Source: a bacterium
GTDB taxonomy: Bacteria > Patescibacteriota > Minisyncoccia > Phycocordibacterales > UBA918
NCBI GenBank assembly: GCA_043719295.1
Contig: JAYSUD010000001.1
Span: 28,943 to 92,942 of the forward strand
Length of the DNA stretch: 64,000 nucleotides
Direction: 5' to 3'
The notes under the pieces were generated by a model. That model was not told the origin of the DNA. It did not search any database and saw nothing but the letters and a program-made list of their open reading frames with translations. The position numbers and the translations under genes are program-made. Positions 3,084 to 41,882 of the stretch are shown here, in pieces; positions within the stretch are counted from its first letter, which is position 1; the number at the start of each line of letters is the position of its first letter.

Positions 3084-4151
3084 ATGTTCGTATTAACAAC
3101 GAACGTTTCTGCAAGTTACAGAGTGATCGCGACACTCGTAGCAACTGCGTTAATTTTGTCGGCTACAGGAGTCTACAATTTTGCACAGGCAGCAAACGTC
3201 ACAAGCGTATCTGACACGTTGAGTGATTCAGATAGAAGCGTAGATTCAAACCATACCATCAGGTTCACAACACCAACTGGTATTACCGTTGGACAAACAG
3301 TCACCATAACCTTCCCAGCAGGTTTTAGTCTAACGGGTGTAACAACTGGAGACTTTGCAATTGCAACACCTGATGCAAACTGGACTGAAGGTGTTGCAGG
3401 ACAAGTGGTAACGTTCACTCGAACTACAAGTCCTGTAGCAGCATCTACTACAGTAATTGCCACCTTCACAGGATCAAACAAAATAAATAATCCTTCGACC
3501 ACAGGTTCGTATGAGATTGTTATTGCGGGGACTATGGCCGATTCAGGCCGCACACGCGTAGCGATTGTAGACAATGTTGATGTTACTGCGAGAGTAGATA
3601 CATCGTTTAACTTCACAGTTATTGGAAACGCAACAACAACAGCTGTTAATGGAACAACGACAACTCGCACATCTTCATCTACAACAATTCCGTTTGGAAC
3701 ACTCGTAGCAAATCAAATTACAACACTTGCACAAGATCTAACCGTCCAGACAAACGCCATTCGAGGGTTTGTGGTTACAGTTGCAGAAGATCAACATCTT
3801 CTTTCATCAACAGGAGCTGATATTGACAACTTCTCTGAGGGAGTTACCTCAGCAACACCTGTCGCATGGAATGCTCCCGACAACCTTATTGGAGACGAAA
3901 AGACCTGGGGACATTGGGGTGTTACTTCTGAAGACACTGCAACTACAAGAAGCGTCCAGTTTGGATCAAATCAATGGGTTGGAGTTTCGACAACACCACA
4001 AGTTCTCTTTAGTCACGCTGGTCCATCTGATGGTACAACAGCAGGAATAGGACGAACAAGAGTAGGGTATCAAGTACAAATCTCGCCACTTCAGGAAGCG
4101 GGAGATGACTACAGCACAACCCTTACATACATTGCAACTCCAACTTTCTAA
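3084..4151 (+). CDS. Secreted cell-surface protein with shared N-terminal module and WxL-like C-terminal domain (paralog of 40737..41882)
   Basis: N-terminal TM/signal then AANVTSVSDTLSDS...HTIRFTTPTGITVGQTVTITFPAGF; C-terminus ...TWGHWGVTSEDTATTRSV...GDDYSTTLTYIATPTF, conserved in five proteins of this window. Confidence 0.6.
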   Translation: MFVLTTNVSASYRVIATLVATALILSATGVYNFAQAANVTSVSDTLSDSDRSVDSNHTIRFTTPTGITVGQTVTITFPAGFSLTGVTTGDFAIATPDANWTEGVAGQVVTFTRTTSPVAASTTVIATFTGSNKINNPSTTGSYEIVIAGTMADSGRTRVAIVDNVDVTARVDTSFNFTVIGNATTTAVNGTTTTRTSSSTTIPFGTLVANQITTLAQDLTVQTNAIRGFVVTVAEDQHLLSSTGADIDNFSEGVTSATPVAWNAPDNLIGDEKTWGHWGVTSEDTATTRSVQFGSNQWVGVSTTPQVLFSHAGPSDGTTAGIGRTRVGYQVQISPLQEAGDDYSTTLTYIATPTF

Positions 4152-4171
4152 ACTAATTTAGAACAAAGAGT

Positions 4172-4203
4172 AAGAAAAATCCCCGAAAGGGGATTTTTCT
4201 GTA
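4172..4203 (+). terminator. Rho-independent terminator
   Basis: AAAAATCCCCGAAAGGGGATTTTTCT hairpin plus T-run directly after the 3084..4151 stop. Confidence 0.75.
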
Positions 4204-4287
4204 TGCCGGAGTTTTGTATTCTTGATGTTATATACATAAAATAATTCGATATCCAAGCGTGTAATGTTAAACTGTATGAGTTATTAG

Positions 4288-5370
4288 TTGTACCTATATA
4301 TGTTGCGTAATTCTCTACTAAAGCAGTTTTTATTTATTGTTCTTTTTGCAATCATCCTGCCTTATGCAACTGCTTCTGCACAAAATAGTACAGCTGGAAT
4401 TGGACTTAAACCGGCAACAATTGAAGGAGGGGCAATACCAGGTGAGACTCAAACGCATCCTTTTGGTGTCACAAACTTAAGTGCGGTAAATCAAACATAC
4501 TATCTTTTTACTCGAGATATTACTGGAGTTGAAGAAGGTGGGGTTCCAATATTTGCTGATGAAAATCAAGAAAAAACTGAGTATGAACTTTCTGAATGGG
4601 TAACACTAAGTGCACAAGAAGTAACCCTAGCACCAGGAGAAGAAAAAGTAATTGATGTTACTATTGCGGTACCGTTAACTGCAACACCGTGTAGTCACTT
4701 TGGTGGAGTGTTTGTTTCTATGCAACCACCACGAATGCGCTCAACTGGAGCTTCAGTAGGGTATGAAGTTGCAAACATCATTAGTTTGCGTGTTGCTGGT
4801 GAGTGTGTAGAAGATGCACAAATTCGTTCGTTCTCAACTGACAACTTTATCTATAGTAAACCTCTAGTTGAATTTACGGCTCGTGTTGAAAACAAAGGAT
4901 CGGTATTGGTTCGGCCATTTGGTCCGCTTGAGATAACCAATATGTTTGGAAAACGAGTTGCCATGGTTACGCTAAATGAATCTAAAGGTGGTGTGTTTCC
5001 TCGTACGGAACGCTCTTTTAATATAACTTGGGAAAGTGATGGACCTGGTTTTGGAAGGTATCAAGCTATTTTAAGTATGATTTATGGTGAGCAAGGCAGG
5101 CAATCAACTATTTCGTCTACTGCTTCATTTTGGATACTGCCGATGAACATTATCCTCCCTGCATTAGGTGCACTTGCGTTTTTACTCTTGTGCGCATACA
5201 TCTTTGTGAAGTTGTATATTAATAAAACAGTGCGGAGTATGTCAGGGGGCACACGGCGAATAGTTCGTCGTAAACGACAAGGGGGTATGTCGGCGCTGTT
5301 ACTTGTGGTTGTTGTCATGCTTTCAGTTACTGCGTTATTCCTCCTTATCTTGTTGGCCCTCTTTGCTTGA
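4288..5370 (+). CDS. CscA/DUF916-DUF3324-like cell-surface protein: signal peptide, two beta-sandwich ectodomains, C-terminal TM anchor(s)
   Basis: Signal peptide; ...VTLAPGEEKVIDVTIAVPLTATP...ENKGSVLVRPFGPLEITNMFGK... then hydrophobic C-terminal segment(s); follows a WxL-like protein as in Firmicutes csc loci; paralogs at 36600, 55030, 56021. Confidence 0.5.
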   Translation: MYLYMLRNSLLKQFLFIVLFAIILPYATASAQNSTAGIGLKPATIEGGAIPGETQTHPFGVTNLSAVNQTYYLFTRDITGVEEGGVPIFADENQEKTEYELSEWVTLSAQEVTLAPGEEKVIDVTIAVPLTATPCSHFGGVFVSMQPPRMRSTGASVGYEVANIISLRVAGECVEDAQIRSFSTDNFIYSKPLVEFTARVENKGSVLVRPFGPLEITNMFGKRVAMVTLNESKGGVFPRTERSFNITWESDGPGFGRYQAILSMIYGEQGRQSTISSTASFWILPMNIILPALGALAFLLLCAYIFVKLYINKTVRSMSGGTRRIVRRKRQGGMSALLLVVVVMLSVTALFLLILLALFA

Positions 5371-5387: not shown

Positions 5388-5789
5388 ATGAAAGATTCTG
5401 TGTACCACAGCTTGCTTCGAATCTCAGCACTCACCTTAAGTTTAGTGCTGTTGTTTGTTAGTGGCATTTTCTCAGAATCAACAAAAGAACTCTCGCTTAA
5501 TACAGGTTCGTATCTTGCTACCGCAATTGGAATGAATGCAGCAGTTTTGCCAACTGAAATAAATACACTCTCAGCACAACTTCTTGAAAAAGATAAAGAA
5601 ATACAGAGTAGGGAAATTGCAGTGAGTTTAAAAGAAGCAAATCAAAATAAAAGTGATACGGCAACATTTGTGTTAAGTGTTCTCCTTTTTGTACTTCTCA
5701 TTTTGATTGTTCTCAATTACATTCTCGACTACATACGGACACGAAAAATTACACCTCTACCTGTGTCAGGATATGAACAAGCTCACTAA
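5388..5789 (+). CDS. Small two-TM membrane protein, unknown function
   Basis: ORF with hydrophobic helices at both N- and C-termini; no recognisable motif. Confidence 0.35.
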   Translation: MKDSVYHSLLRISALTLSLVLLFVSGIFSESTKELSLNTGSYLATAIGMNAAVLPTEINTLSAQLLEKDKEIQSREIAVSLKEANQNKSDTATFVLSVLLFVLLILIVLNYILDYIRTRKITPLPVSGYEQAH

Positions 5790-6585
5790 GTCAGCTCTTA
5801 TAGGTATTGGTGCTGTAGTTTTATCTACGGTCGCTATTCAAGCAAGTGATCTTGTTGGTGGTATTAGTGGCAATCTCGCGGGTTTAGCAATTGAAAGTCA
5901 GAGTGTATGTGGCGAAGGAGCGACGTTGGTGCTTTTAGGTTCGCAAAGTTTATGTGTTGATACGTATGAAGCCTCACCGAGTGATGCGTGTCCGTATCCT
6001 GTTGTAGATAGTCAAAATAAAACACAAGACAATGCAAATGCTCCTGAGTGCACGGTGGCATCCGCCCAAGATGCAATACCGTGGGCTTTCGTTTCACAGA
6101 TTCAAGCACAGCAATTTTGTGGGAAAGTAGGTAAGCGCCTACCTTCAAATGAGGAATGGTATAAAATTGCCAGTGGATTTAGTAATGAAGGAGCGTGTGT
6201 TATTAACTCTGGGTTATCCTCTCCTTCTAAAACGGGGACAGAAGCGTGTGTCACTCCACTTGGCATCTACGATGTGGTTGGAAATGTATGGGAATGGATT
6301 GATGGTGAAGTAAGTGGGGGAATGTATAACAACCGCGCGTTACCAACTTCAGGGTATGTAGCCATGGTTGATACAAATGGTATTACTATTGAGACAAAAA
6401 ATAGTGCTTTGGAGGAATTTGGAAATGATTACGCACAAACTTCACAAGAAGGGATAAAAGGAATTATCCGTGGTGGTTTTTATGGAAGTAAAAGTGATGC
6501 AGGAATATTTGCTCAAAATCTAGCGGTGCCACTTGATTTTAAATCTGCTGGAGTTGGGTTTCGCTGTGTGAAGACGGTACAGTAA
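5773..6585 (+). CDS. Membrane-anchored SUMF1/FGE-sulfatase (C-type lectin-like fold) domain protein
   Basis: N-terminal TM (MNKLTKSALIGIGAVVL...) then RLPSNEEW...GNVWEWIDGE...RGGFYGSKSDAG...GFRCV, characteristic of the FGE-sulfatase domain. Start moved to ATG 5773 from track 5707. Confidence 0.65.
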   Translation: MNKLTKSALIGIGAVVLSTVAIQASDLVGGISGNLAGLAIESQSVCGEGATLVLLGSQSLCVDTYEASPSDACPYPVVDSQNKTQDNANAPECTVASAQDAIPWAFVSQIQAQQFCGKVGKRLPSNEEWYKIASGFSNEGACVINSGLSSPSKTGTEACVTPLGIYDVVGNVWEWIDGEVSGGMYNNRALPTSGYVAMVDTNGITIETKNSALEEFGNDYAQTSQEGIKGIIRGGFYGSKSDAGIFAQNLAVPLDFKSAGVGFRCVKTVQ

Positions 6586-6635
6586 TTTATTTATAGTTTT
6601 TTTGGGGATTAAGAAGTTCTTTGAACTTCTGATAG

Positions 6636-7457
6636 TTGTATACTATAAATATGAAATGGCTCAAAGTGGGGAGCGTTATATTTGGTGCGCTTATTATTAC
6701 TGCACTTGGTATTGACGCAGCCGATACACTTTCTGGTTCGAGAGGAACACTTCTTGGTCAATTAGTTGGAAGTCCCCAACAAAGTGCCTGTGAAGCAGGG
6801 ATGGTAGAAGTTAATTTGGCTTCAACGTTTACCTGTGTTGATGTATATGAAGCTTCTGCGCTACAAGACTGCCCCTATCCATCACCACAAAATGAAGAAG
6901 AGACTCGATTAAATCTTGAAAGTACTACTTGTGGAGCATCTTCAGGTGCGGAAGTTTTACCCTGGCGTTTTATTACACGTGAACAAGCAAATGTTGCCTG
7001 TATGAAGTCGGGTAAACGACTTCCAACAAACCAAGAATGGCACGTACTTGCATCGGGAACCCGTGATGACAGATCTCTCTGTAACATGGACGGGAGTGGA
7101 GTTTTGCAAACTGCAGCCAATTCACAATGTGTCTCAGCTATCGGAGTTATAAATGCTATTGGTAATGTGTGGGAATGGACCTCCGACGATGTAATTTCTG
7201 GAGTATATAAAGGAAGAGAGCTTCCAAGTTCTGGTTATGTTACTCAAGTTGATAACGAAGGGGTTGCGACACTCACAACACTCACACCTTCAGAATTGTT
7301 TTATAAAGATTATTTCTGGTCTTCAAAAGAAGGTGCATACGGTATTATGCGTGGGGGTTTCTATGGAAGTAAAAGTGATGCAGGTGTGTATGCGGTTCAT
7401 GCACAGACTTTGCCGACTGCAGCGGGGACTGCCATTGGTTTTCGCTGCCTTCGGTGA
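6636..7457 (+). CDS. Membrane-anchored SUMF1/FGE-sulfatase domain protein, tandem paralog of 5773..6585
   Basis: Same motifs: KRLPTNQEWH...GNVWEWTSDD...RGGFYGSKSDAG...GFRCLR; N-terminal TM. Confidence 0.65.
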   Translation: MYTINMKWLKVGSVIFGALIITALGIDAADTLSGSRGTLLGQLVGSPQQSACEAGMVEVNLASTFTCVDVYEASALQDCPYPSPQNEEETRLNLESTTCGASSGAEVLPWRFITREQANVACMKSGKRLPTNQEWHVLASGTRDDRSLCNMDGSGVLQTAANSQCVSAIGVINAIGNVWEWTSDDVISGVYKGRELPSSGYVTQVDNEGVATLTTLTPSELFYKDYFWSSKEGAYGIMRGGFYGSKSDAGVYAVHAQTLPTAAGTAIGFRCLR

Positions 7458-7680: not shown

Positions 7681-9600
7681 ATGAATAGGACCTACCTGTG
7701 TAGGAGTCTTGGTGTTATAGCACTTGCTGTTGTTTTAGTGCTCGGTTTTTTCGTCTTTCCGTTTTATAGCAACGCACTTAATATTCACTCATACAGTGAC
7801 ACTATTACCGATTCACGTCCCTTGGGTTATGCAAACCACACACTTGAATTTACGATCAAAACTGATATTGCGCCTTCTGGATTTATTGAAATTGAACCGC
7901 CCTCTGGATTTGAAATTACTTCTGCAGGTACTTTTGGTGAACGTAACGTTGAGGTGTATGTAAATGGGTTGTTGCGAACGGCAAGTTCAACAGGAGGTGC
8001 CACTGTTGATGAAGTAGTTATTACCCGTGGTTCACCTGGACTTATTCGCTATAGTTTAAACCCTACAGCAGGTATTGCAACAGATTCTCTAATTGAAGTA
8101 CGTATCGGTAATCATACTACTGGTGCATTGTATGACAGTGTTTCTTTTAGTAGTACTACAGGCACTACTACAACAATACGTGATACAGAGCCAATTAAAA
8201 ATAGTTCACAAATCGGCACACATAAAGTAGGTATTTCTTTTGGAGGAACTACAGCACCAGCGTATGCTGAGTTTAGTATTGCGGTTGTTAATGCGGTAGG
8301 TACAGGATTTGTTGATACAACTGAAACTGTTCCTCCATATCGTTTTAATGGTGCACCAACAGGTGAGATTGGAGGAACGACATTTAATGTTGAACTATCA
8401 CTTGAAACAGATGAGTTGGCTACGTGTAAGTTTTCGCAAGCATCAGGTACTCCGTATGTTTCAATGAACCGCACTTTTTCTCAAACGGGGCAAGTAGTCC
8501 ACTCGTCAATTGTGTCAGTTGCAACAGGGACACTCAATTCATACTTTGTTCGCTGTCTTGACGATGAAGGAAACTTCAACATTGACGATTACGTTATTTC
8601 TTTTATTTCGCAACCGCCACCATCAGGAAATCCTAACTCTGAAGGAGATGTAGATGGAGACGGAACTGGTACTGGAAATGACGGAACAGGAAGTGGTTCA
8701 GGCAGTGGCGGATCATCGGGAAATTCAAATGGTGGAGGTGGAGGAAGTGGTAGCAGTAGTGGTGGAGGTGGTGGTAGTAGTGGTGGAGGAAGTGGAGGTG
8801 ATAGTGGTACTGAAAATGCCAGTGAATCAGGTGGGGGACTTGAGTCAACTAACGCACCGTATCGAAGTGGTGACGCTGAAGTAGTAATTCGTGGATATGC
8901 ATTCCCTGGAAGTACTGTGTATGGACTTGTTGATGGGTTTCAAACAAAAAATGTAAAAGCAGGCAGTGATGGTAGTTACAGTATGACCATAGAGGAAATT
9001 GCACGTGGAGTGTATACCTTTGGTGTGTACGCAGTTGATGGTAGTGGTAAAAAATCAAGTACGTTTAGTACATCGTTTACCGTCACGGGAGGTAGAACTT
9101 CTAACCTTTCAAATATCAATATCATGCCGTCAATTACGGTAACTCCAAACCCTGTGACATCGGGGCAGTCACTTACTGTTAAAGGCGAATCAATTCCAAA
9201 CGCAGAAGTTACTGTTGAAAATCTAAATGATAAAAGTTCAGCGTCAAGAAAAAGTTTTACTGCAACTGCTAATGCATCAGGTGACTGGTCACTAACTATT
9301 GATACAACTGGCTTCACCAATGGTACGTATAAGATACGCGCAAAATCAAAGCAACTTGCAGGGTTGCTTTTAGAGACAAACTTTTCTGAGTATACATTTT
9401 ATGGAGTAGGTCAAAGTGCGGACGTCCCCTTAAGTGCTGACTTAAACACTGATGGAAAAGTAAACCTAACCGACTTCTCAATCTTACTCTTTTGGTGGGG
9501 AGGTGACGGGGGTAATTCAAACCCCCCTGCTGACATCAATAGAGACAAAAAAGTAAACCTAACCGACTTCTCAATCTTACTCTTCAACTGGACCGGTTAA
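7681..9600 (+). CDS. Secreted dockerin-containing surface protein (shared N-terminal module, Ig-like repeats, Gly/Ser-rich linker, C-terminal dockerin)
   Basis: TM/signal; N-terminal module homologous to 3084/40737 proteins (YSDTITDS...HTLEFTIKT...SGFEIT); (GGS)n linker; C-terminal double repeat DLNTDGKVNLTDFSILLFWWGG / DINRDKKVNLTDFSILLFNWTG matches the dockerin Ca-binding repeats. Track ORF begins 7597; ATG 7681 precedes the signal peptide. Confidence 0.65.
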   Translation: MNRTYLCRSLGVIALAVVLVLGFFVFPFYSNALNIHSYSDTITDSRPLGYANHTLEFTIKTDIAPSGFIEIEPPSGFEITSAGTFGERNVEVYVNGLLRTASSTGGATVDEVVITRGSPGLIRYSLNPTAGIATDSLIEVRIGNHTTGALYDSVSFSSTTGTTTTIRDTEPIKNSSQIGTHKVGISFGGTTAPAYAEFSIAVVNAVGTGFVDTTETVPPYRFNGAPTGEIGGTTFNVELSLETDELATCKFSQASGTPYVSMNRTFSQTGQVVHSSIVSVATGTLNSYFVRCLDDEGNFNIDDYVISFISQPPPSGNPNSEGDVDGDGTGTGNDGTGSGSGSGGSSGNSNGGGGGSGSSSGGGGGSSGGGSGGDSGTENASESGGGLESTNAPYRSGDAEVVIRGYAFPGSTVYGLVDGFQTKNVKAGSDGSYSMTIEEIARGVYTFGVYAVDGSGKKSSTFSTSFTVTGGRTSNLSNINIMPSITVTPNPVTSGQSLTVKGESIPNAEVTVENLNDKSSASRKSFTATANASGDWSLTIDTTGFTNGTYKIRAKSKQLAGLLLETNFSEYTFYGVGQSADVPLSADLNTDGKVNLTDFSILLFWWGGDGGNSNPPADINRDKKVNLTDFSILLFNWTG

Positions 9601-9811: not shown

Positions 9812-10276
9812 ATGTCCTTTCTACAAAGACTTAAAGGTCGGGGTGTACGAAGTGGAGAAAAACTACTTTCTTCTGATGAAGCTACTTCGCTTGATAAAAT
9901 TGTGCAACTTGATGTTGACGTGTTTCAAACTGACAACATGATTGTTGTTTATGCACATGCGGCGGGTGCTGATATGTCTGACATTCAAGTTTCCATTGAA
10001 GGAGACGCTGACATTGTACTTATTGAAGGGCGACGACTTCGTCCTGAACATATTGCATTTCCAAAGAAGAAACCTGATGGTGCATTTTTTACTGAAGAAT
10101 GTATCTGGGGCGATTTTTATCGAAGAATTATTTTGCCTGAAAGTGTTGATATCGAAAACGCTGATGCAAAAATTAAAAATGGTGTTCTCATTTTAGTATT
10201 GCCACTTTTGAAAGCTGAAGAAAAAGAAAAAGTAAAACTGAAGATAACTAAAGCAAAGTCAGCACAACGTATGTAA
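9812..10276 (+). CDS. Hsp20/alpha-crystallin family small heat-shock protein
   Basis: ACD pattern VDVFQTDNMIVVYAHAAGADMSDIQVSIEGD..LIEG...GDFYRRIILPESVDIENADAKIKNGVLILVLPL. Confidence 0.75.
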   Translation: MSFLQRLKGRGVRSGEKLLSSDEATSLDKIVQLDVDVFQTDNMIVVYAHAAGADMSDIQVSIEGDADIVLIEGRRLRPEHIAFPKKKPDGAFFTEECIWGDFYRRIILPESVDIENADAKIKNGVLILVLPLLKAEEKEKVKLKITKAKSAQRM

Positions 10277-10285: not shown

Positions 10286-11851
10286 GTGTACTCACATCGT
10301 ATGAATGTTCTTTCTCACACACTCTCTTTCAAAAATTCGCTAATCAAATTAGGTATTGCTGTTTTAGCAGTTTCTATAACTTATTTCTTGTGGGGTATTT
10401 CAAATGCGTATGCAGCTGACTTGGTTGTCTCTCCTTCATCTGGATCATATGCATCGGGACAAACGTTTACCGTAACTATTCAAGCAGATCCAAAAGGTGA
10501 TAGTGTCAATGCGGTTGAAGCTGGACTAACGTTTGATAAAACAAAGCTTTCTGTAGTGAGTGTTTCAAAAACAGGATCTGCGTTTTCACTGTGGACCACT
10601 GAACCAGTTTTTTCAAATACTGCAGGAACTATTACCTTTGGTGGAGGGAGTCCAACTCCGTTTACTGCTAAGTCCACACTTATGAGTGTGACGTTTAGAA
10701 CGCTAACTGAAGGTGCGGGTAGTGTTTCTTTTGGAACTGCGTCAGTTTTGGCTGCAGACGGTAGAGGAACTGATGTGCTTAAAGCAAAAGTTGGAGGAAA
10801 TTACACCGTTACTGCTACAACAGCGCCTGCACCAACGCCAACACCGACCCCAGAGACACCTAAAAAACCTGAAGAAGCACCTAAAACAGAAGATTCAAAT
10901 GCAGCACTTGCGTTTGGAGATCCGCCACGTGCACCTGAAGTCGGATCTGTAACGTTTCTTGATCCTGAGATTTGGTATAACAAAAAAGATGGAGCTTTTA
11001 CCTGGGAGCTTCCGTTTGACGTAAATGCATTACGGGCTGAAATTGCAACCTCAGCATCAAATGTACCAACAACCGTCATAGATCCGCCAAACGAAGAATT
11101 TGTTTTAAATAAAGAAAATATTGTTGACGGTATACAGTACTTGAGTATTCAGTACAAGAACCAAGTTGGTTGGGGTGCTGTTTTAAATCGTAAGATACAA
11201 ATAGATACAACTGCACCAGAGCCATTTGCAATAACTGTGCGAGCTGGAACAACTCCTTCTTCATTCCCACTATTGGTTTTCGATGCAAAAGACGTAACCT
11301 CAGGTATCGAAAAATATGAACTTACTATTGCTTCAAGCGAGCCGGTTATTGTAACTCCTGAAGAAGCACGTTTAGGTTATTTAATTAAAGATCTTGAAGA
11401 CGGTACCTATACAGTCAAAATTGTTGCGTTCGACAAAGCAGGAAACAAAATGGAAAGTAGTGTTCCAATTTTAATTACTGCAGGTTGGATAAAGCCACTT
11501 GATACACTTGAGGAAGTTTCGTTTTGGTCATTCTTAACAGGAACAACTATCTTTGTAACACTTCTTATACTCGCACTCTTGATGCAATTCGCATACTTGG
11601 TATACGAACGAAAGCAATACCGAAAGAAGGAAGAGAAGTTACGAAAAGAGACTCGAGAAATTCAAGATCAAATGGAAAAAATCTTCTCTGCATTACGTGA
11701 TGAGATTTACGATCAAATTAATAATATTTCAAAGCGGCCACGACTATCAGTTAAAGAAAAAGAAGCTGTTGAAGGTCTAAACCAAGCACTTGAAGTATCA
11801 GAGACGCTTATTGAGAAAGAGATTAATGACGTCAAGAAGATACTTAAGTAA
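10286..11851 (+). CDS. Membrane-anchored cohesin-like domain protein (N-terminal cohesin-like module, Pro/Thr linker, Ig/FN3-like domains, C-terminal TM plus cytoplasmic coiled coil)
   Basis: ADLVVSPSSGSYASGQTFTVTIQADP...VSFGTASVLAADGRGTDVLKAKVGGNYTVTA resembles the cohesin beta-sandwich; paralogous modules at 42634, 43679, 46124; C-terminal TM LTGTTIFVTLLILALLMQFAYLV then charged coiled coil. Confidence 0.5.
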   Translation: MYSHRMNVLSHTLSFKNSLIKLGIAVLAVSITYFLWGISNAYAADLVVSPSSGSYASGQTFTVTIQADPKGDSVNAVEAGLTFDKTKLSVVSVSKTGSAFSLWTTEPVFSNTAGTITFGGGSPTPFTAKSTLMSVTFRTLTEGAGSVSFGTASVLAADGRGTDVLKAKVGGNYTVTATTAPAPTPTPTPETPKKPEEAPKTEDSNAALAFGDPPRAPEVGSVTFLDPEIWYNKKDGAFTWELPFDVNALRAEIATSASNVPTTVIDPPNEEFVLNKENIVDGIQYLSIQYKNQVGWGAVLNRKIQIDTTAPEPFAITVRAGTTPSSFPLLVFDAKDVTSGIEKYELTIASSEPVIVTPEEARLGYLIKDLEDGTYTVKIVAFDKAGNKMESSVPILITAGWIKPLDTLEEVSFWSFLTGTTIFVTLLILALLMQFAYLVYERKQYRKKEEKLRKETREIQDQMEKIFSALRDEIYDQINNISKRPRLSVKEKEAVEGLNQALEVSETLIEKEINDVKKILK

Positions 11852-12821: not shown

Positions 12822-12994
12822 AGGTTGTATGTAACTGGATGAGGTTTTTCTCAAAAAAAAGAGGTGAGAATACTATAATATCCATATTTAAAGCGCTATA
12901 TTTTACAGTGTGTGCTTTTGTTGCATCCTTCTCTACAAAACTAGTACCAAGAAGAATATTTGTCACATACAACTCAATATTGAGGAGATTAAAA

Positions 12995-34646: not shown

Positions 34647-36500
34647 ATGTCGTACAACATGAAAGAGCTGCCACAATACATCAACACGGCAGGTAAAATA
34701 ACCGTCATCACATCACTTCTTGGAGTGGTTGCTTTTGCAGTTGTCTTCCTGCTTAACATCGGAGCTCAAGAGCTTCGTCAAGCAGAGGCACAAGGAATGG
34801 CGACAACAACTGTCACGGTTTTAAACACTCCTCCGCAATGGACGGTTGACGCAAGAGAATCAACTCCTTCATCTACAACAACCCCAACAAACTCAGGTTC
34901 TGTTATTACTTGGCGAGCAATTGCAACTGACTCGAACGCAGAAAGTTATTACCTGTTGGTTTGTAATAATGGTAACGCGCCAACAGCAAACCCAGCAGCA
35001 GTACCAACGTGTGGAGCTGGTGCAGTACGATGGGCAGTATCTTCCTTTACAGCAAGTGCAGCCCAAGCAAGTGCAGCAACAACAACAACCGAAGCATTTG
35101 CTGAATCAAATGCATGGTTTGCCTGGATTTGTGACGCAGTTGCAGTAAGTCCAAGATGCAACTCTCTTTTCAAACAAGGAACAGGTTCAACTTCTTCTCC
35201 GTTTAACGTAAACCACCGACCAACATTTACCGTATTTGCAGATAACTCACCTGCACTTCCTGGTGCAACAGTAAGCTTTACCTCAACTGCATCTGATGCG
35301 GATACAGTGACGTCGTCTGACACCGTTAAACTCTATGTCTGTTCAACTGCAGTATTTGCAACATCAACTGACACGTGTGGAGGTCTTCTACTTGCTAGTT
35401 CTACACTCTCAGCATCTAATCCAACAGCGAACTATGTCATTCCAATTCCAACACAAGATCAGAACTATGGAGCTTTTGGATACATTGTTGACAATCATGG
35501 CCATGAAGCTTCTGGAGGATCCCAGGCATCAAACTCAATTTTGACTGTTTCTAATGCAACTCCATCTGTAACCGCAGCTCAGATTACTCTTAACGGGGGA
35601 ATTGACATGACGTTAGCTGTAGAAGCAGGTCAAACAACGGGTTACACACTTCAGTATGTAGCTACCGATAACAATAGTTGCCAAAATGCATCCGCAGGAA
35701 GAGAAATAACTCGAAATATTGTTTCAGTGTATCGATCAGGTATTGGATCAACTACGTGTAATGGTAGCGCGGGTGCGTATAATGCAAACAACTGTTACGG
35801 AAGTAGAATCGCAACATCAACTTGGAACCTATCATGTACAGCCTCAACTACAAGTTGTGGAGGGGCAGCTGACACAACTCAGATTTTCGATTGTACGTTC
35901 CCGCTTTGGTATATCGCTGACCCAACTGACGGTACTGCAACAAGTACTCAATATTCAGCACAAGATTGGAGAGCCGCAGTATCAGCAATTGATGACAATA
36001 GTGCAACAAGTTCATTCACGCAAAGTTCAACTGCAAACATTGACGTATTAAGTTATCTATCAATGGCACTTAACACTCTTGCTATACCGTATGGTTCACT
36101 TGAGCCAGGGCAAAGGACTGACCCTCTGGCTGCAACAACCACAATTTCCGCAACAGGTAACGTCGGTCTTGATGAGCGACTAACAGGAGAATCAATGTGT
36201 ACGTACTACACTTCAGCAGTAAGTTGTAACAACTCTGCAACATCAACAGTCGCCGATTTCAATCAGGTATTTGGAACCTCTTCTGTAACGTATGGCTTTG
36301 CAACTTCAGCTGGAAGAACACTTTCATCAACCACACAAAAAGAACTTGAGATTAACGTTAAGAAGTCTACAACAACATTGACACAGGCTACAGGAAGAAC
36401 ATATTGGGGTATTAACATCCCTGCAACTATTACACTCGCAGGTTCATATACAGGTGAAAACACATTCTACGCAGTTGTTGGAGAGTCTGCATTCTGGTAA
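34647..36500 (+). CDS. Secreted Thr/Ser/Ala-rich surface protein with WxL-like C-terminal domain (divergent member)
   Basis: N-terminal TM; C-terminus ...LAIPYGSL...ISATGNVGLD...TYWGINIPATITLAGSYTGENTFYAVVGESAFW parallels the C-termini of the 12995 and 48833 giants. Confidence 0.5.
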   Translation: MSYNMKELPQYINTAGKITVITSLLGVVAFAVVFLLNIGAQELRQAEAQGMATTTVTVLNTPPQWTVDARESTPSSTTTPTNSGSVITWRAIATDSNAESYYLLVCNNGNAPTANPAAVPTCGAGAVRWAVSSFTASAAQASAATTTTEAFAESNAWFAWICDAVAVSPRCNSLFKQGTGSTSSPFNVNHRPTFTVFADNSPALPGATVSFTSTASDADTVTSSDTVKLYVCSTAVFATSTDTCGGLLLASSTLSASNPTANYVIPIPTQDQNYGAFGYIVDNHGHEASGGSQASNSILTVSNATPSVTAAQITLNGGIDMTLAVEAGQTTGYTLQYVATDNNSCQNASAGREITRNIVSVYRSGIGSTTCNGSAGAYNANNCYGSRIATSTWNLSCTASTTSCGGAADTTQIFDCTFPLWYIADPTDGTATSTQYSAQDWRAAVSAIDDNSATSSFTQSSTANIDVLSYLSMALNTLAIPYGSLEPGQRTDPLAATTTISATGNVGLDERLTGESMCTYYTSAVSCNNSATSTVADFNQVFGTSSVTYGFATSAGRTLSSTTQKELEINVKKSTTTLTQATGRTYWGINIPATITLAGSYTGENTFYAVVGESAFW

Positions 36501-36599: not shown

Positions 36600-37544
36600 A
36601 TGAAATTTGTTAAATTATTTTGCATAGGGTTGCTCCTTTTTACCCAATTGGGAGCACCATTTGCATTGGCAGGTTTCGGTGTTACTCCCCCCTACGTTCG
36701 TAATACAAGCCTCACACGAAACTCTACTTATGAGCAACAAATTCTTCTAGTTAGAGGAGATCCTGCCTTTCCACTTAAAGCAACAGTAATTGTTGATGCA
36801 CCAGAAATCTTAACGTGGATTGAAATTGTTGAAGGGACTGAGTTTGAGCTTCCAAAAGGTGAACAAAAAGTTCCAATGACCGTGCGAATCAAGGTCCCGA
36901 AAGATGCAGAGTTTAAAAACTATACTGGAGCAATTCGTGTCAAAACAGGTGCATCAAACGATGCAGTCGCGTCAGGTGCCGTTAATATTTCTTTGGGTGC
37001 ACAGATTGATATTGAGCTTGATGTCATTGATAAAGAGATTAAAGATTTTCGTATTCAGAAGATTGGAATATCTGACTTAAATGCAGGTCACAAATTCGCA
37101 TGGCTCTACTTCCCAGGAAAGATCAATTTTAATATGCTTGTAGAGAATATTGGTAACGTTGACGTCGCTCCTTCAAAAGTAACGTTCAGCATCTTTGACG
37201 CAACTGGAAACGTACTTCTTGAAGATATTAAAAATAAAGGCTCAATCAAAGAAGTAGCCCCGTATGGAGCAGAACAAGTAACGGCATCACTTCCAACACG
37301 ATTACCACCAGGTACCTACATAGCGCGATATAAGATTTTTAACGATGACGACATCAAACAAGAGGGTGAGGTTAATGTAAACGTACTGCCGTACGGGACA
37401 TTACAAGTTGCAGGTTTTGGTTTTATAGGTCTTTCACTTGCACATCAGATTTCTGTTATTCTCCCAATCCTCGCACTCTTGTCAATTATAATCTTTACCA
37501 TATACACAGTTAAGGAGCGTCGACTAAGAAAAAATGCCGTATAA
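36600..37544 (+). CDS. CscA/DUF916-like cell-surface protein with C-terminal TM anchor
   Basis: Signal peptide, two beta-sandwich-like halves (…GEQKVPMTVRIKVPKDAEFKNYTGAIRV…; …ENIGNVDVAPSKVTFSIFDATGN…), C-terminal TM ILPILALLSIIIFTIYTV + KERRLRKN; directly follows a WxL-like protein. Confidence 0.5.
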   Translation: MKFVKLFCIGLLLFTQLGAPFALAGFGVTPPYVRNTSLTRNSTYEQQILLVRGDPAFPLKATVIVDAPEILTWIEIVEGTEFELPKGEQKVPMTVRIKVPKDAEFKNYTGAIRVKTGASNDAVASGAVNISLGAQIDIELDVIDKEIKDFRIQKIGISDLNAGHKFAWLYFPGKINFNMLVENIGNVDVAPSKVTFSIFDATGNVLLEDIKNKGSIKEVAPYGAEQVTASLPTRLPPGTYIARYKIFNDDDIKQEGEVNVNVLPYGTLQVAGFGFIGLSLAHQISVILPILALLSIIIFTIYTVKERRLRKNAV

Positions 37545-37547: not shown

Positions 37548-38684
37548 ATGTATGCAACATTGTACGCTTTCAACAAAATTGTAGTTGCATTGCTCATAAT
37601 TCTTTTTCTCGTACAGCCACTTAATTCATTTGCTCAGATAAGCCCAGGGTACGTTTCAACTACTACTTTTACCTTAAGTATTTGCGGAAATGTGCTAGTG
37701 GATGACGGTGAGGAGTGTGATGTGCTTGGAGAAACTGGTGGATACAGCACTACTATCATAGGGCGTCAGTGTGATGTTGATTGTCAGTATGGACCCTACT
37801 GTGGTGATGCAATTTTACAGACTATTTTTGGTGAGGAATGTGACGACGGAAACAATGCTGATGCCGATTTTTGTAGTGCTGAATGTACCATTGAACCAGC
37901 AGGAAGTGGCGGTGGAGGCTCTTCAGGAGGTGGAAGTGGGGGAAGTGGAGGAAGTACTGAAGATCTAGGAGATACAAAAGTGAGTATTACCGGAAGGGGG
38001 TTTCCAAGTCAAACAGTACACGTTCTTTTGGATTCAAGAGAAATAAGTACGGTTCGTGCAGATAGCACAGGTAAATTTACCTTTGCAACAAATGCATCTC
38101 CTGGGACTGTCTCTATGGGTTTTTGGTCACTTGACCTCAATAGAATTAAATCAATTACCTACAATACAACGTTCGATGTAACGCAAGGAGCAATTACAAA
38201 CGTTAATAGTGTTTTGATTCCTCCAACACTTGCAGTTGATAAAGCAGTATTGAATTCTGGCGACACTATAAACTTCAGTGGTCAGACAATACCAAACACA
38301 AAAGTTGAAGTGCATATTAATAACAGTGAAAAAGTACTCACGACAACTTCAGGTGCCAACGGTGTTTGGACAGTACCGTATGTCACAACTGGTTTAAGCA
38401 ACAAAGAGCATACCGCACGCGCACGTTTTATTTTGGGTGCTGGTACACTAACCACACAAAGTAGTTTTAGTACCACGCTGCAGCTTGCTGTGGGGGTTGC
38501 AGGTCGTTCCTCAACACCATCAGACTTGAATCGAGATGGAAACATAAATCTTACTGACTTTTCTATTTTAATTTTCTGGTGGGGAAAAGACGGCGGTAAC
38601 TCAGATCCAAAAGCCGACATCAACGGAAATGGAAATGTAGGCCTAGAAGACTTTTCGATCTTACTATTCAACTGGACGGGCTAA
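37548..38684 (+). CDS. Secreted protein with Myxococcus-type cysteine-rich repeats, Gly/Ser linker, Ig-like region and C-terminal dockerin
   Basis: CGNVLVDDGEECDVLGE...CGDAILQTIFGEECDDGNNADADFCSAECTIE fits the C-x-DG-x-EECDDGN-x-DGDGCS-x-C repeat; C-terminus DLNRDGNINLTDFSILIFWWGK / DINGNGNVGLEDFSILLFNWTG dockerin repeats. Confidence 0.65.
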   Translation: MYATLYAFNKIVVALLIILFLVQPLNSFAQISPGYVSTTTFTLSICGNVLVDDGEECDVLGETGGYSTTIIGRQCDVDCQYGPYCGDAILQTIFGEECDDGNNADADFCSAECTIEPAGSGGGGSSGGGSGGSGGSTEDLGDTKVSITGRGFPSQTVHVLLDSREISTVRADSTGKFTFATNASPGTVSMGFWSLDLNRIKSITYNTTFDVTQGAITNVNSVLIPPTLAVDKAVLNSGDTINFSGQTIPNTKVEVHINNSEKVLTTTSGANGVWTVPYVTTGLSNKEHTARARFILGAGTLTTQSSFSTTLQLAVGVAGRSSTPSDLNRDGNINLTDFSILIFWWGKDGGNSDPKADINGNGNVGLEDFSILLFNWTG

Positions 38685-39379: not shown

Positions 39380-39380
39380 A

Positions 39381-39806: not shown

Positions 39807-39826
39807 TACTCCAATCGATTGGAGTA
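39807..39826. promoter_or_regulatory. Palindrome TACTCCAATCGATTGGAGTA immediately upstream (promoter region) of the minus-strand regulator gene; candidate autoregulatory operator
   Basis: Lies 16 bp upstream of the start codon, adjacent to a TATTAT -10-like hexamer on the minus strand. Confidence 0.45.
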
Positions 39827-40008
39827 ACAGTTTTTATGCTAGTTCTAGTATCGTTTTATAAGTTCAATTAATTTTGTTGAGATTTTGTGTAAGATAATTG
39901 AACCAACAAATTGGTATGGTATGTGAAATGTAATTGGTATCACTGCACACATCTGTATCTCTCTCTAAACTAAATCTCGAATTTTGAGTCAAAAGAAAAT
40001 GAGTTCTG

Positions 40009-40440
40009 TTGACGTTGGAGACGCACAATCGGTTTTCACTAAACATGATTGCAAGCACAGCTAATGCTGAGGCAAAAGAGTTATGCTCTATGACAGCAAC
40101 AGAAACTGGGATGGGAAATTACAAGATAGTTTTGTGTCGGTGTTGGAGTGTTCCAGCGGTTTTTTGTTGAACATAATATTGCACACGGCAAGCCGAGGTG
40201 CAATATTATGTTCTTTGGCAACAACAAAAACCGGGTGAGAAAGTGTGGAACACTTTCGCAAGACTCTTTGAGAGACTTTGTGAGAGAAGCGAAATAAAGT
40301 ATCCAATGAGTGGACAGCTTCTGTTAAGAAGATAAATTCGCAATAGTCGCTACTTCTTACAGAAGCTGTTTAGGTCGTCACTATTTTATTCAAAATAGTA
40401 GTCAACCTCTTGCAAAAGCGTCCCACGCTTTTTCACTCGT
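40009..40440. repeat. Cluster of degenerate family-1 elements (two '-' copies ~40013-40138, 40140-40258) plus family-3/leader hairpin modules (40295-40355, 40405-40440)
   Basis: GTTGGAGTGTTCCAGCGGTTTTTTGTTG AACATAATATTGCAC...GTGCAATATTATGTTC ...CAACAACAAAAACCGGG; CAGCTTCTGTTAAGAAG...CTTCTTACAGAAGCTG hairpin enclosing GTAGCGACTATTGCGAATT; CTTGCAAAAGCGTCCCACGCTTTTTCAC. Confidence 0.65.
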
Positions 40441-40736
40441 TTGCTTATTTTTTATGTGTATAACCCATCAATTATTTTTTACAACAAAGCTACAATGAAG
40501 GAGTACTTGTTGCAGATGTAGTCCTTTAGAACTACTGCGTTACGTCGCGTCGTAACGGGCATCTTCAGCCGGATGTTATGCAACGAGTGTACGTACATAT
40601 CTAGTCTCGTGCCTTGGGCGTGGAGACCCGATGCACAACTTCTTTTTGCCCTACCACAAGCAAAATTAAATCTTGAATCTTTGCATACAAACAAAGAAAT
40701 AAGAAAGGTGTGCGTTAAAAACCAACGAAAGAGCAT

Positions 40737-41882
40737 ATGTTGAAAACGGAAAAAACCGTTATATTGCTCAAAACTATTGCAACGGTGGCAGGCTTCGCGA
40801 TCATTTTATGGTCACTTGGTCTGCCGTCACTCCGCTTTGCGGACGCCGCAAACATCACGGATGTTAGCGACACACTCTCAGATTCAGCACCGAGTGCTGC
40901 ATCAGATCACACGCTTTCGTTCGTAACTCCAACAGGAGTTTTAAACGGAGCAACCACAACCATCACGTTTCCAGCAGGATTCACGGGAATTGGTGCACTT
41001 GGTGTTGAAGATGTAGACTTTGCGTCTTCATCTGATATGTCAATTGCAACCACGTGTAGCGGTTCTGAACGAGTAAGATTTATTCCTTCAGGCCAGACGG
41101 TAAGTTTTGTTTTCTGTCCAGGTGACGGAGGAGTGCTTGCAGCTGGTGCTACCACTACTATCCAAATTGGTTTTAATGCCACATTTGGTTCAGCGGGTAA
41201 TTCTCGGATATCGAATCCAGCAGGAGAAGGATCATATGAAATCGGCTTTACGGTCGGTGCATCTGATTCTGGATGGACTCGAGTTGTAATCTTAAGTGAT
41301 GTACTTGTTACAGCGGCTGTTGACACAATCTTTACGTTCGCTGTCGCGGGCTTAGGTGCGGGTCAAACAGTTAATGGGACAACAACAACAGGAATTACTG
41401 GTTCAACCACTATTCCTTTTGGTACACTCGCAGCTGGAGTAGCAACTCGAACAGCACAAAGTCTCACAGTAAATACAAATGCGGCTAATGGGTATGTTGT
41501 CACCGTACAACTTGACCAACCTCTTCAGTCATCAACTGGAGCGGACATTGACGGATTTGCTCAAGGATCGTACACAAATACTCCCGTTGCATGGGTAGCT
41601 CCAACAAGTGTTGTTGGTAGCGAAAACACTTATGGACACTGGGGTATAACTTCTGACGATGCAACCACAACACGAAGCGTAGGAGATGAGTTCAATGCTA
41701 ATGAATTTGCATCAGCAAGCACATCACCTCGCGTAGTTATGAGCCATACAGGACCAACAAATGGTACTATAACTGGCGAAGGGACTACACGTGTAGGTTA
41801 CAAAATTCAGATTGGTGGACTCCAAGAGGCTGGAGATGATTACACTGCTACGCTTACGTACGTAGCAACTCCTACTTTTTAA
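40737..41882 (+). CDS. Secreted cell-surface protein, paralog of 3084..4151 (shared N-terminal module and WxL-like C-terminal domain)
   Basis: ADAANITDVSDTLSDS...HTLSFVTPTGV...TITFPAGF; C-terminus ...TYGHWGITSDDATTTRSV...GDDYTATLTYVATPTF. Confidence 0.6.
   Translation: MLKTEKTVILLKTIATVAGFAIILWSLGLPSLRFADAANITDVSDTLSDSAPSAASDHTLSFVTPTGVLNGATTTITFPAGFTGIGALGVEDVDFASSSDMSIATTCSGSERVRFIPSGQTVSFVFCPGDGGVLAAGATTTIQIGFNATFGSAGNSRISNPAGEGSYEIGFTVGASDSGWTRVVILSDVLVTAAVDTIFTFAVAGLGAGQTVNGTTTTGITGSTTIPFGTLAAGVATRTAQSLTVNTNAANGYVVTVQLDQPLQSSTGADIDGFAQGSYTNTPVAWVAPTSVVGSENTYGHWGITSDDATTTRSVGDEFNANEFASASTSPRVVMSHTGPTNGTITGEGTTRVGYKIQIGGLQEAGDDYTATLTYVATPTF

Follow-up and report, generated by a model that had tools for sequence, protein, structure and literature searches.

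The window, by which we mean the whole 64,000-nucleotide stretch of DNA analysed here, comes from a member of the Paceibacteria/Parcubacteria (CPR) and probably encodes a divergent Pam pilus system, in which assembly would proceed by chaperone-assisted, usher-less donor-strand exchange. The Pam pilus was described in Candidatus Mycosynbacter amalyticus, with PamA/PamB as pilins and PamC/PamD as chaperones (Troman et al., bioRxiv 10.64898/2026.03.03.709456). Our reading draws on homologies, predicted folds, domain layouts and conserved gene order. At its centre are two pilin-like paralogs and a giant protein with a C-terminal domain (C-domain) of the same type:

3084..4151, + strand: p355, predicted major pilin (AF2 model, NF058581 match, conservation)
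3084-3191: p355 signal peptide (residues 1-36)
3192-3566: p355 nine-strand N-domain (residues 37-161)
3567-3605: p355 hydrophobic linker, putative donor strand (residues 162-174)
3606-4148: p355 C-terminal domain, putative acceptor (residues 175-355)
40737..41882, + strand: p381, second pilin paralog, with N-domain, linker and C-domain like p355 (identity, NF058581)
48833..55024, + strand: p2063, giant protein ending in a Pam-type acceptor domain (54470-55021)

The reading frames listed in the initial annotation are present where it placed them. p355 and p381 share 51% identity over their full length (E 3e-98, pairwise comparison), and several related genomes also have two pilin copies. The AF2 model of p355 (pLDDT 89) shows exactly nine strands in the N-domain, followed by an unstructured linker (residues 162-174) and the C-domain. 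A homolog search returned more than 2044 homologs of p355, none of which is annotated. Among 118 diverse relatives, positions that are invariant or nearly so cluster chiefly in the linker and C-domain, the pattern also reported for Pam pilins (bioRxiv 10.64898/2026.03.03.709456), and the motifs quoted in the initial annotation are real and strongly conserved. The linker between the two domains of p355 is hydrophobic, with some positions that hardly vary; that of p381 is strongly hydrophobic by hydrophobic-segment scan. The modules shared by the two proteins are most likely the two halves of a Pam-pilus subunit.

The NCBI model NF058581 (CPR_Pam_pilin_C) matches residues 199-355 of p355 (E 1.6e-5, nearly the whole model covered), p381 (E 4.4e-5, nearly full model length) and the C-terminus of p2063 (36.7 bits, E 4.1e-9, model positions 4-146 of 148). 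Scores of 25-37 bits in the window are significant but lie below the curated NCBI cutoff of 55 bits. Among the 118 diverse family members 74 match the model, with a best E of 1.5e-10. In the solved Pam filaments, the pilin C-domain is a groove that accepts the donor strand of a neighbour (bioRxiv 10.64898/2026.03.03.709456). The C-domain match extends to the last residue in the 150 matches listed, out of 1261 representative clusters, except for P0220, where it ends at residue 320 of 334. According to the initial annotation, the domain also terminates the 617-, 2063- and 5576-aa proteins. For p2063 this holds: residues 1885-2062 are matched by the C-domain HMM with 78.8 bits and by BLASTP with 32% identity (E 1e-15). 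Other genomes contain proteins of 1022-2469 aa with a p355-type C-domain at the end, and p2063 is a candidate pilus-borne or tip adhesin. It does not hold for the other two proteins, which end in a different domain:

12839..29725, + strand: giant surface protein of 5628 aa (5576 aa from Met53), ending in an alternative 'YWGI.IP' C-terminal domain
34647..36500, + strand: p617, surface protein ending in the alternative C-terminal domain

In both, the p355-type C-domain was sought by HMM (negative scores), BLASTP (nothing) and NF058581 (nothing). They share a C-terminal domain of their own (32% identity, E 9e-27), which is always terminal in its proteins in 24 metagenome loci. Its profile-profile alignment with the p355 C-domain is collinear, weak and non-significant (P 0.006).

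The genes that follow these surface proteins encode candidate partners:

4300..5370, + strand: p360, membrane-anchored two-Ig-domain protein of the WxLIP/DUF916 family, candidate PamC/PamD-like chaperone (Pfam, tblastn, HMM, Foldseek)
55030..57682, + strand: p339 and p568, WxLIP/p360-family membrane-anchored proteins, immediately after p2063 (HMM, Pfam)
36600..37544, + strand: p314, with signal peptide, beta-rich region and C-terminal membrane helix (sequence, hydrophobic segments)

p360 is a relative, in sequence and fold, of WxLIP (PDB 9i25, 9i1y) and, after that, of chaperone-usher chaperones. Pfam WxLIP_PGBD scores 26.6 bits on p360 against a gathering score of 27.3, about half of the p360 homologs carry PF06030, and tblastn with p360 finds annotated DUF916 proteins, on which the p360-family HMM scores 37-59 bits. 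The p360 profile also matches EfmWxLIP1 in the PDB (E 7e-5). With the p360 model as query, the best Foldseek matches in the PDB are the WxLIP structures 9i25_C and 9i1y (E about 1e-12 to 1e-13), followed by CfaA, CsuC, Caf1M and FimC (E 1e-8 to 1e-10, target TM-score ~0.5). A p360-like ORF directly follows the pilin gene in at least 65 of 80 species-level loci. The p360-family HMM gives 88.8 bits for p339 and 170.3 bits for p568; both have weak Pfam WxLIP_PGBD matches, and p568 has a LytR_C domain in addition. p314 scores 13 bits. A p314-like ORF follows the gene for the alternative C-domain in 13 of 24 loci, and six p314-like ORFs of those loci match the p360 HMM; p314 is a distant p360-family relative and the cognate partner of p617-type proteins. 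Since the modules of p355 and p381 are most likely those of a Pam pilus subunit, served by chaperone-like relatives of WxLIP, a polymerisation socket is a likelier role for their "WxL-like" C-domain than a cell-wall anchor.

Between and beside these genes lie dockerin and cohesin proteins and several further conserved genes:

5388..5789, + strand: p133, small membrane protein with two hydrophobic segments (scan), conserved in the cluster
5773..7457, + strand: tandem pair of FGE-sulfatase-like proteins, both with a membrane segment at the N-terminus (Pfam E 2.8e-13 and 7.6e-13)
7681..9600, + strand: p639, with pilin-type N-domain, linker-like segment, Gly/Ser-rich spacer, Big domains and tandem dockerin, and no acceptor domain
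9812..10276, + strand: Hsp20-family protein between the dockerin and cohesin genes (Pfam HSP20 E 4e-11)
10286..11851, + strand: p521, with signal peptide, cohesin, Ig-like region, C-terminal membrane helix and charged tail
37548..38684, + strand: p378, second dockerin protein, with Cys-rich region, Big domain and dockerin (Pfam Dockerin_1 29.0 bits)
42634..45442, + strand: p346 and p600, membrane-anchored proteins, both with C-terminal hydrophobic segments
46124..46894, + strand: p256, small protein whose dockerin match is marginal (Dockerin_1 22.3 bits, gathering score 22.9)

The N-module common to p355, p381 and p639, as proposed in the initial annotation, is borne out. An HMM built from the mature residues 37-165 of p355 matches p639 residues 34-148 with 41.0 bits, and since the signal peptide was excluded from this HMM, the similarity is not explained by signal-peptide bias. 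In place of the C-domain, p639 carries a dockerin (Dockerin_1 29.6 bits, gathering score 22.9), together with Big_13 and Big_6. Its orthologs retain the linker-like motif VAIIDxVGVGPVDT, and the tandem dockerin forms the C-terminal end in all 14 complete orthologs. In 45 of 80 related genomes, an ORF that has the N-module and lacks the C-domain is located downstream of the pilin gene. The modular swap is thus real and conserved. The dockerin is plausible as an attachment device, since the cohesin proteins p521 and p600 both combine a signal peptide with a membrane helix at the C-terminus. p521 (Pfam Cohesin 25.8 bits, gathering score 24.1; hydrophobic segment at residues 411-429) is probably the receptor in the membrane to which the p639 dockerin binds. 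The Cohesin match of p600 in Pfam reaches 37.2 bits; p346 is cohesin-like by eye only, with no Pfam match.

The gene order is conserved in the related locus L006, where pilin, p360-type protein, small protein, two FGE-like proteins, dockerin protein, Hsp20, cohesin protein and giant follow each other; the giant there is a 5475-aa ortholog of the 5628-aa protein at the same position, and the Hsp20 gene also keeps its place. L005 has this order in part, and the proteins of both loci are ~55% identical to those of the window. The position of p521 is kept in both loci, that of p133 in L004, L005 and L006, and the FGE-sulfatase-like pair is syntenic in L004 and L006. Speculatively, this pair may modify surface proteins.

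From these data we infer a filament with p355 and p381 as its pilins. In both, a Sec signal peptide is followed by a nine-strand beta-sandwich N-domain, then by the conserved hydrophobic linker and the C-domain. Homology with PamA and PamB suggests that the C-domain is an incomplete Ig-like fold; the next subunit would supply its linker strand to fill the groove, and the filament would polymerise in this way. p360, p339, p568 and, more distantly, p314 are membrane-anchored, have two predicted beta domains each and belong to the same family as the Gram-positive WxL-interacting protein. They would keep the groove of freshly secreted subunits capped up to the moment of strand exchange; the p360 model resembles PapD-type chaperones. 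Large proteins such as p2063 would join the fibre through their C-domain and display their long N-terminal regions as adhesins. The most conjectural step concerns p639, which, judging from domain logic and gene order, may be chain terminator and anchor. It retains the N-domain and a linker-like strand without a groove, and could therefore donate a strand and not accept one. It would end the chain on the cell-proximal side, with its dockerin binding the membrane-anchored cohesin protein p521. If this reading is true, the pilin C-domain polymerises and the dockerin tethers, and the two are not interchangeable anchors.

In the anchor reading that goes back to the initial annotation, the C-domain is a WxL-type domain that binds peptidoglycan non-covalently, with C-domain and dockerin as interchangeable holders of one N-module. 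Its place at the protein C-terminus, the clustering of its genes with WxLIP/DUF916-family genes and a collinear resemblance in motifs (ipFGtL; TNAxxG[FY]xV against D.RG..GWxL; AG.DY..TLTYIATP against AGTYKSVFTYTATSG of an annotated Paenibacillus WxL protein) all fit this view. However, Pfam WxL PF13731 matches no protein of the window at E up to 10 and is absent among the families listed for the 118 relatives. The solved WxL chain 9i25_A is not matched by the C-domain profile, which found no related sequence in the PDB, and is absent among the 50 listed Foldseek matches of the p355 model. The conserved Asp and Arg that precede the first Trp in WxL domains (PMC9772566) are missing, and it is the Pam pilin model that the domain matches instead. 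Comparison with WxL by hhalign gives P 0.03, in a test of low power: compared with each other, two bona fide WxL subfamilies come no further than P 0.007. The reading as a WxL-like cell-wall anchor fails the refutation test that the initial annotation itself had named, and we consider a WxL anchor decidedly improbable. At the level of the system the WxL idea was half right, as the partner p360 is a true WxLIP/DUF916 relative. The observation behind the annotation is thus partly confirmed and its interpretation partly supported.

A static arrangement, in which p360-type proteins are permanent anchors that complete the C-domain fold with a strand of their own and p355, p381 and p2063 are single molecules that form no fibre, is rather unlikely. 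Such a role has already been proposed for WxLIP, the closest structural match of p360 is a stable complex of WxLIP with a long WxL protein (9i25), in an AF2 prediction the WxL beta-sandwich is completed by a strand from WxLIP (PMC10599100), and p360-type proteins have membrane helices. Against it, the hydrophobic and partly near-invariant linker of p355 suits a donated strand better than a passive connector, the homology is to a domain shown by cryo-EM to polymerise, and the presence of two pilin paralogs in a genome is reminiscent of PamA and PamB. Scarcely credible, in our view, are matrix or coat proteins unrelated to Pam, with a BslA-like hydrophobin cap as N-module and a TasA-like jelly-roll as C-domain. 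Foldseek with the whole p355 model returns BslA (target TM-score 0.66) and, weakly, the TasA fibre 8aur (E 9e-4) beside generic two-Ig adhesins, and two relatives have weak Pfam BslA matches; these matches are weak, single-domain and reflect the generic Ig-like class. Pfam scans gave no TasA/Peptidase_M73, no dedicated signal peptidase gene lies nearby, and the Pam model with its chaperone-like partner accounts for more of the data.

The preferred Pam-type reading can be set against known systems. Likeness to PamA and PamB is drawn from the published description and NF058581, and the family is known here from genes and predicted folds. Common to the Pam system and the window are the pilin layout (signal peptide, nine-strand N-domain, linker, C-terminal domain), two pilin paralogs, a significant if sub-cutoff similarity of the pilin C-domains, strongest conservation in linker and C-domain, two-Ig chaperone-like proteins with C-terminal membrane helices, the lack of an usher, and a CPR host. 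Pam pilins are reported mainly in Saccharimonadia and Microgenomatia, whereas our host belongs to the Paceibacteria/Parcubacteria, which are absent from the text of that report (bioRxiv 10.64898/2026.03.03.709456). Unlike in Pam, scores fall under the NF058581 family cutoff, the genes form at least three sub-clusters rather than one operon, the pilin C-domain also occurs on giants of 2063 aa and more, and a protein with N-domain, linker and terminal dockerin stands beside membrane cohesins; bioRxiv 10.64898/2026.03.03.709456 says nothing of dockerin or WxL/DUF916. ATP synthase genes were not seen in the parts of the window scanned. PamC and PamD have one C-terminal transmembrane helix each (bioRxiv 10.64898/2026.03.03.709456), whereas hydrophobic-segment scanning of p360 finds a second hydrophobic helix beyond the first membrane helix.

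The WxL/WxLIP (DUF916-DUF3324) clusters of Firmicutes (PF13731, PF06030; PMC9772566, PMC10599100; 9i25, 9i1y) share with the window a partner homologous to WxLIP in sequence and fold, with signal peptide, two Ig-like domains and membrane helix, and the cluster logic, in which a small subunit and a large protein with the same C-domain go together with an Ig protein anchored in the membrane. The WxL fold is predicted to be completed by a strand that WxLIP inserts. In contrast, our C-domain has no WxL profile match, Trp-x-Leu pairs or Asp/Arg pair, the small subunit has an additional N-domain and linker, and neither LPXTG proteins nor sortases occur in the window's cluster; published descriptions present WxL proteins as platforms bound to peptidoglycan rather than as polymers. 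With chaperone-usher pili (Pap/Fim pilins) the window shares the predicted fold of p360, like the two-lobed chaperones PapD, FimC, Caf1M, CfaA and CsuC, and the proposed donor-strand complementation followed by exchange. No sequence similarity to chaperone-usher proteins was detected. Here both usher and outer membrane are absent, the chaperone-like protein has a membrane anchor, and the Pam donor strand is an internal linker of two-domain pilins rather than an N-terminal extension. As in cellulosome-type cohesin-dockerin systems (PF00963/PF00404), tandem calcium-binding dockerin repeats are C-terminal, cohesin genes lie nearby, and both domains match above the Pfam gathering scores. Here, however, glycoside hydrolases and a scaffoldin are absent, the cohesins sit on a membrane helix with a charged cytoplasmic tail, and the dockerin is fused to a pilin-type N-domain.

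The window carries nearly all of its genes on the + strand, and the open reading frames described in the initial annotation are present where it had placed them. The two predicted pilins, p355 (3084-4151) and p381 (40737-41882), are full-length paralogs with 51% identity (E 3e-98), which agrees with their proposed homology. Their N-terminal module had also been reported in p639 (7681-9600), a protein with a C-terminal dockerin. An HMM built from mature p355 residues 37-165 and 64 homologs, with the signal peptide left out, matches p639 residues 34-148 with 41.0 bits. The N-terminal similarity is thus real, and signal-peptide bias as its sole source is ruled out. The modular swap of C-termini behind this N-module is likewise real. 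The p355-type C-domain closes the giant 2063-residue protein p2063 (48833-55024), with an HMM score of 78.8 bits over the last 178 residues and 32% identity in BLASTP (E 1e-15). The same domain had been assigned to the C-termini of the 617- and 5628-residue proteins p617 and p5628. This assignment is rejected by three methods: HMM scores are negative, BLASTP finds nothing and the NCBIfam model NF058581 gives no match.

The C-domain does match the model NF058581 (“CPR_Pam_pilin_C, Pam pilus system pilin subunit”), over almost the whole length of the model. The match is to p355 residues 199-355 (25.0 bits, E 1.6e-5), p381 (23.6 bits, E 4.4e-5) and the C-terminus of p2063 (36.7 bits, E 4.1e-9), covering model positions 3-148 of 148. 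None of the three reaches the curated cutoff of 55 bits, and such significant but sub-threshold scores indicate homology beyond the limits of the curated family. Among 118 diverse p355 relatives, 74 match at E up to 0.01 (best E 1.5e-10). The Pam filaments PamA and PamB of Candidatus Mycosynbacter amalyticus were solved by Troman et al., and each subunit has a signal peptide, an N-domain folded as a nine-strand β-sandwich, one linker strand and a C-domain of truncated Ig-like fold, in the groove of which lies the linker of the adjacent subunit (bioRxiv 10.64898/2026.03.03.709456). The AF2 model of p355 (pLDDT 89) agrees with this layout and has a helix at residues 9-29, nine strands within residues 40-161, a stretch without regular structure at residues 162-174 and the C-domain at 175-353. 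As in the Pam pilins, the linker and the C-domain are the most conserved parts (bioRxiv 10.64898/2026.03.03.709456): in the 118 relatives, 27 of 29 nearly invariant positions fall within residues 165-353, N136 and P137 lying outside, and the six invariant ones do so without exception. The linker region of p381 is hydrophobic enough to give a membrane-like score in a hydropathy scan. The C-domain is best interpreted as a socket for polymerisation rather than a wall anchor.

The pilin family is large, with more than 2044 pilin homologs, 1261 representative clusters of the C-domain at 50% identity and 205 GTDB loci. Homologs of the proteins studied belong to MAGs labelled Paceibacteria/Paceibacterota, Kaiserbacteria, Nomurabacteria and Parcubacteria, which places the window in the Parcubacteria group of CPR bacteria. 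In the alignment of p355 relatives, one member matches NCBIfam NF052521 (“TafC family fimbrial protein”, E 4.1e-11) and two carry LVIVD repeats and choice-of-anchor B domains, so that varied N-terminal cargo is joined to one C-domain.

The gene directly downstream of p355 encodes p360 (4300-5370), which has a signal peptide, two β domains and C-terminal helices, placed by its AF2 model at residues 282-315 and 332-355. It scores 26.6 bits on the Pfam family PF06030 (WxLIP_PGBD/DUF916), 0.7 under the gathering score of 27.3, and PF06030 is present in about half of the p360 homologs listed. Conversely, a p360-family HMM matches annotated DUF916 proteins of Enterococcus, Cellulosimicrobium and Paenibacillus with 37.6-59.0 bits, and the p360 profile matches the solved structure EfmWxLIP1 in the PDB by sequence (E 7e-5). 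A Foldseek search with the p360 model has as its top PDB matches 9i25_C (“WxLIP bound to long WxL”) and 9i1y, followed by the pilus chaperones CfaA, CsuC, Caf1M and FimC with target TM-scores of about 0.5, and RbmA with about 0.31. Two genes directly after p2063, encoding p339 and p568, belong to the p360 family by HMM (88.8 and 170.3 bits), and all three proteins group with the WxLIP/PF06030 family. Besides the p360/WxLIP-type ectodomain, p568 (55976-57682) has two more membrane segments and, at the C-terminus, a LytR_C domain (35.4 bits). At species level, at least 65 of 80 loci have a p360-like ORF next after the pilin. The Pam operon likewise encodes PapD/FimC-like chaperones, PamC and PamD, each with a C-terminal membrane helix (bioRxiv 10.64898/2026.03.03.709456), and p360 resembles them in its predicted chaperone-like fold and in its C-terminal helices.

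The C-termini of p617 and p5628 match each other (32% identity, E 9e-27) and form an alternative domain that is the protein end in 24 of 24 metagenomic relatives, all with a YWGI.IP motif. The fuller motif reads YWGI.IP ... G.Y.G.N (window 12839-29725 and 34647-36500; loci L087-L110 from other genomes). A 26-sequence profile of this domain aligns collinearly with the p355 C-domain at only P 0.006; the two are separate domains that may be very distant relatives. The gene directly after p617 encodes p314 (36600-37544), a distant member of the p360 family (13 bits by HMM), and an ORF for a p314-like, membrane-anchored protein comes next after the alternative-domain gene in 13 of the 24 loci. The p617-type and p314-like genes may constitute a second subunit-chaperone pairing. 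With p360 after p355, p339 and p568 after p2063 and p314 after p617, the window holds three subunit-partner pairs.

The initial annotation had read the C-domain as a WxL-like cell-wall anchor. Pfam PF13731 (WxL) gives no match on p355, p381 or the C-termini of p2063, p617 and p5628 at E up to 1 or 10, and it is absent among the families listed (25 of 61) for the 118 p355 relatives. The WxL signature consists of two Trp-x-Leu motifs, the first after D-x-R-G-T-x-A-G and the second in Y...LTWxL...P near the C-terminus, and an Asp and an Arg ahead of the first Trp are conserved (PMC9772566). At these positions the p355-type C-domain has TNAxxG-[FY]-V-V and DY.TTLT-Y-I-A-TP, and it lacks the Asp and Arg. 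In one annotated WxL protein, from Paenibacillus, the second motif likewise carries Tyr or Phe, and the likeness in motifs is therefore a lead only. For profile comparison, a WxL reference set was reached through tblastn matches of the neighbour p360 (annotated plasmid proteins of Enterococcus faecium and Paenibacillus urinalis, and a candidate small Cellulosimicrobium protein) and enlarged to 35 homologs. hhalign of the C-domain family against these alignments gives a non-significant P 0.03 in an underpowered test, two bona fide WxL subfamilies reaching mutually only P 0.007. In greedy mode the same underpowered comparison is collinear over 158 columns with three motifs lined up. The C-domain profile does not match the solved WxL structure 9i25_A, which is also absent among the 50 Foldseek matches listed for the p355 model, and PDB sequence searches with pilin profiles find nothing related. 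WxL membership of the C-domain is thus not established, the Pfam WxL profile having given no match. On the Paenibacillus urinalis plasmid, the annotated WxL protein (L002:7043-7612) and the adjacent RCC1-domain protein (L002:7628-10774) both end in ...AGTY(K/R)SVFT(Y/F)T(A/L)TSGI, with Tyr or Phe in place of the expected second Trp. Several close homologs of these proteins are missed by Pfam WxL, and the model therefore seems to overlook part of the family.

The dockerin protein p639 is built of the pilin N-domain, a Gly/Ser-rich spacer, Big domains and a tandem dockerin, whose calcium-binding repeats are readable in the sequence as DLNTDGKVNLTDFSILL and DINRDKKVNLTDFSILL. Dockerin_1 (PF00404, gathering score 22.9) scores 29.6 bits on p639 and 29.0 bits on p378, a further dockerin protein. 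Two proteins, p521 and p600, combine a signal peptide, a cohesin domain (PF00963; 25.8 and 37.2 bits, gathering score 24.1) and a C-terminal membrane helix; both sets belong to the type I dockerin and cohesin families. In 45 of 80 loci the pilin has, downstream of it, ORFs that carry the N-module without the C-domain, and the tandem dockerin is the end of all 14 complete p639 orthologs. Orthologs of p639 retain the final strand of the N-domain as well as a linker-like motif, VAIIDxVGVGPVDT, which reads VAILDxVLVTAxVDT in the pilins. A related locus, L006, keeps the order pilin, p360-type protein, small protein, two FGE-like proteins, dockerin, Hsp20, cohesin and giant protein, and locus L005 keeps it partly. 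Further features of the window are the following:

35-2761, UmuD-like (Peptidase_S24) and UmuC-like (IMS) genes, directly upstream of the pilin gene
5773-7457, two tandem FGE-sulfatase-like proteins (formylglycine-generating-enzyme fold) with N-terminal membrane segments, between the p360 gene and the dockerin gene
9812-10276, Hsp20 small heat-shock gene between the dockerin and cohesin genes, placed likewise in L006
31794-34552, MacB-type ABC ATPase and FtsX/MacB permease, between p518 and p617
39381-39791, minus strand, the only sizeable ORF in 38685-40736, 136 aa, by eye like a small helix-turn-helix regulator

UmuD/UmuC-like neighbours recur in L005 and L006, so this adjacency is kept across genomes. 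The FGE-sulfatase-like pair, also found in L004 and L006, might modify surface proteins, and the MacB-type ATPase and permease could export or process surface components; p518 is an fn3-rich neighbour of the giant protein p5628. The position of Hsp20 beside surface-protein genes is odd for a cytoplasmic chaperone. The region 38685-40736 is about 2 kb with almost no coding on the + strand, about 950 bp upstream of p381 are non-coding, and Rfam and tRNA scans of the window are empty.

Homologies, predicted folds and synteny are direct observations here, and the Pam structures suggest how the parts would work together. By analogy with them, p355 and p381 would polymerise through donor-strand exchange, with the p360-type proteins as membrane-anchored chaperones, and p2063 would enter the fibre via its C-domain, as an adhesin. 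For p639 we infer a role from our own analysis: it would give a strand and be unable to accept one, so that the fibre would terminate at the cell, and its dockerin would tie the fibre to the membrane by binding cohesin. This would parallel the role proposed for PamR (bioRxiv 10.64898/2026.03.03.709456).

Three other readings were weighed against polymerisation. The subunits might instead dock statically on the p360-type proteins and never polymerise, a possibility that arises because 9i25 is a stable complex; it would leave the conserved hydrophobic linker unexplained, and we regard it as unlikely. That the C-domain is a WxL-type peptidoglycan anchor is more doubtful again, both the profile and the motif tests having failed. 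The WxL idea of the initial annotation holds for the link to the WxL world, which is real through the partner proteins, and gives way to the polymerisation socket as regards wall anchoring. A matrix protein of the TasA or BslA type is very improbable, since nothing beyond weak single-domain fold matches speaks for it. With the full p355 model as query, the PDB matches listed by Foldseek are generic two-Ig adhesins, BslA and, weakly, TasA.

In the prevailing view CPR bacteria spend their lives attached to other cells, by means of contact that are still little understood. The window suggests that a related pilus system is very common in Paceibacteria/Parcubacteria, where giant adhesins and a cohesin-dockerin link come with it. 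The window also connects the WxL/WxLIP surface clusters known from enterococci, listeriae and lactobacilli, which have long lacked an explanation, with a mechanism of chaperones and subunits, and this link makes testable predictions for both fields.

The system may work in the manner of chaperone-usher pili. It is a non-member of that class, as Pfam scans of most of the larger ORFs in the window, with neither the giant protein nor the last few genes among them, gave no usher-like protein. In WxL/WxLIP clusters the WxLIP gene adjoins the WxL gene, just as p360 adjoins the pilin p355. For the Firmicute system, an AF2 prediction has a strand of WxLIP filling a gap in WxL and completing its β-sandwich (PMC10599100), which, as modelled, would be donor-strand complementation in all but name. 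The connection to Pam is drawn neither there nor in the Pam paper (bioRxiv 10.64898/2026.03.03.709456), and our literature search found no paper joining WxL with donor-strand exchange. We put forward, as a tentative possibility, that the CPR Pam pilus and the Gram-positive WxL/WxLIP clusters are two branches of one ancient, usher-less system of membrane-anchored chaperones. WxLIP would be its PapD-like chaperone and WxL domains its incomplete Ig-like subunits completed by strand insertion, and Paceibacteria would have added a new form of rooting of the pilus through a terminator (pilin N-domain and donor linker) whose dockerin sits in a membrane-anchored cohesin. The kind of system has been known since June 2026, the new pilus type having been solved in 2026 in one Saccharibacterium (bioRxiv 10.64898/2026.03.03.709456). 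The system in the window is a divergent and very widespread Paceibacteria variant of the Pam type, to which it adds giant proteins bearing the pilin C-domain, a pilin N-domain fused to a dockerin beside membrane cohesins, and a clear homology of its chaperone-like proteins with WxLIP.
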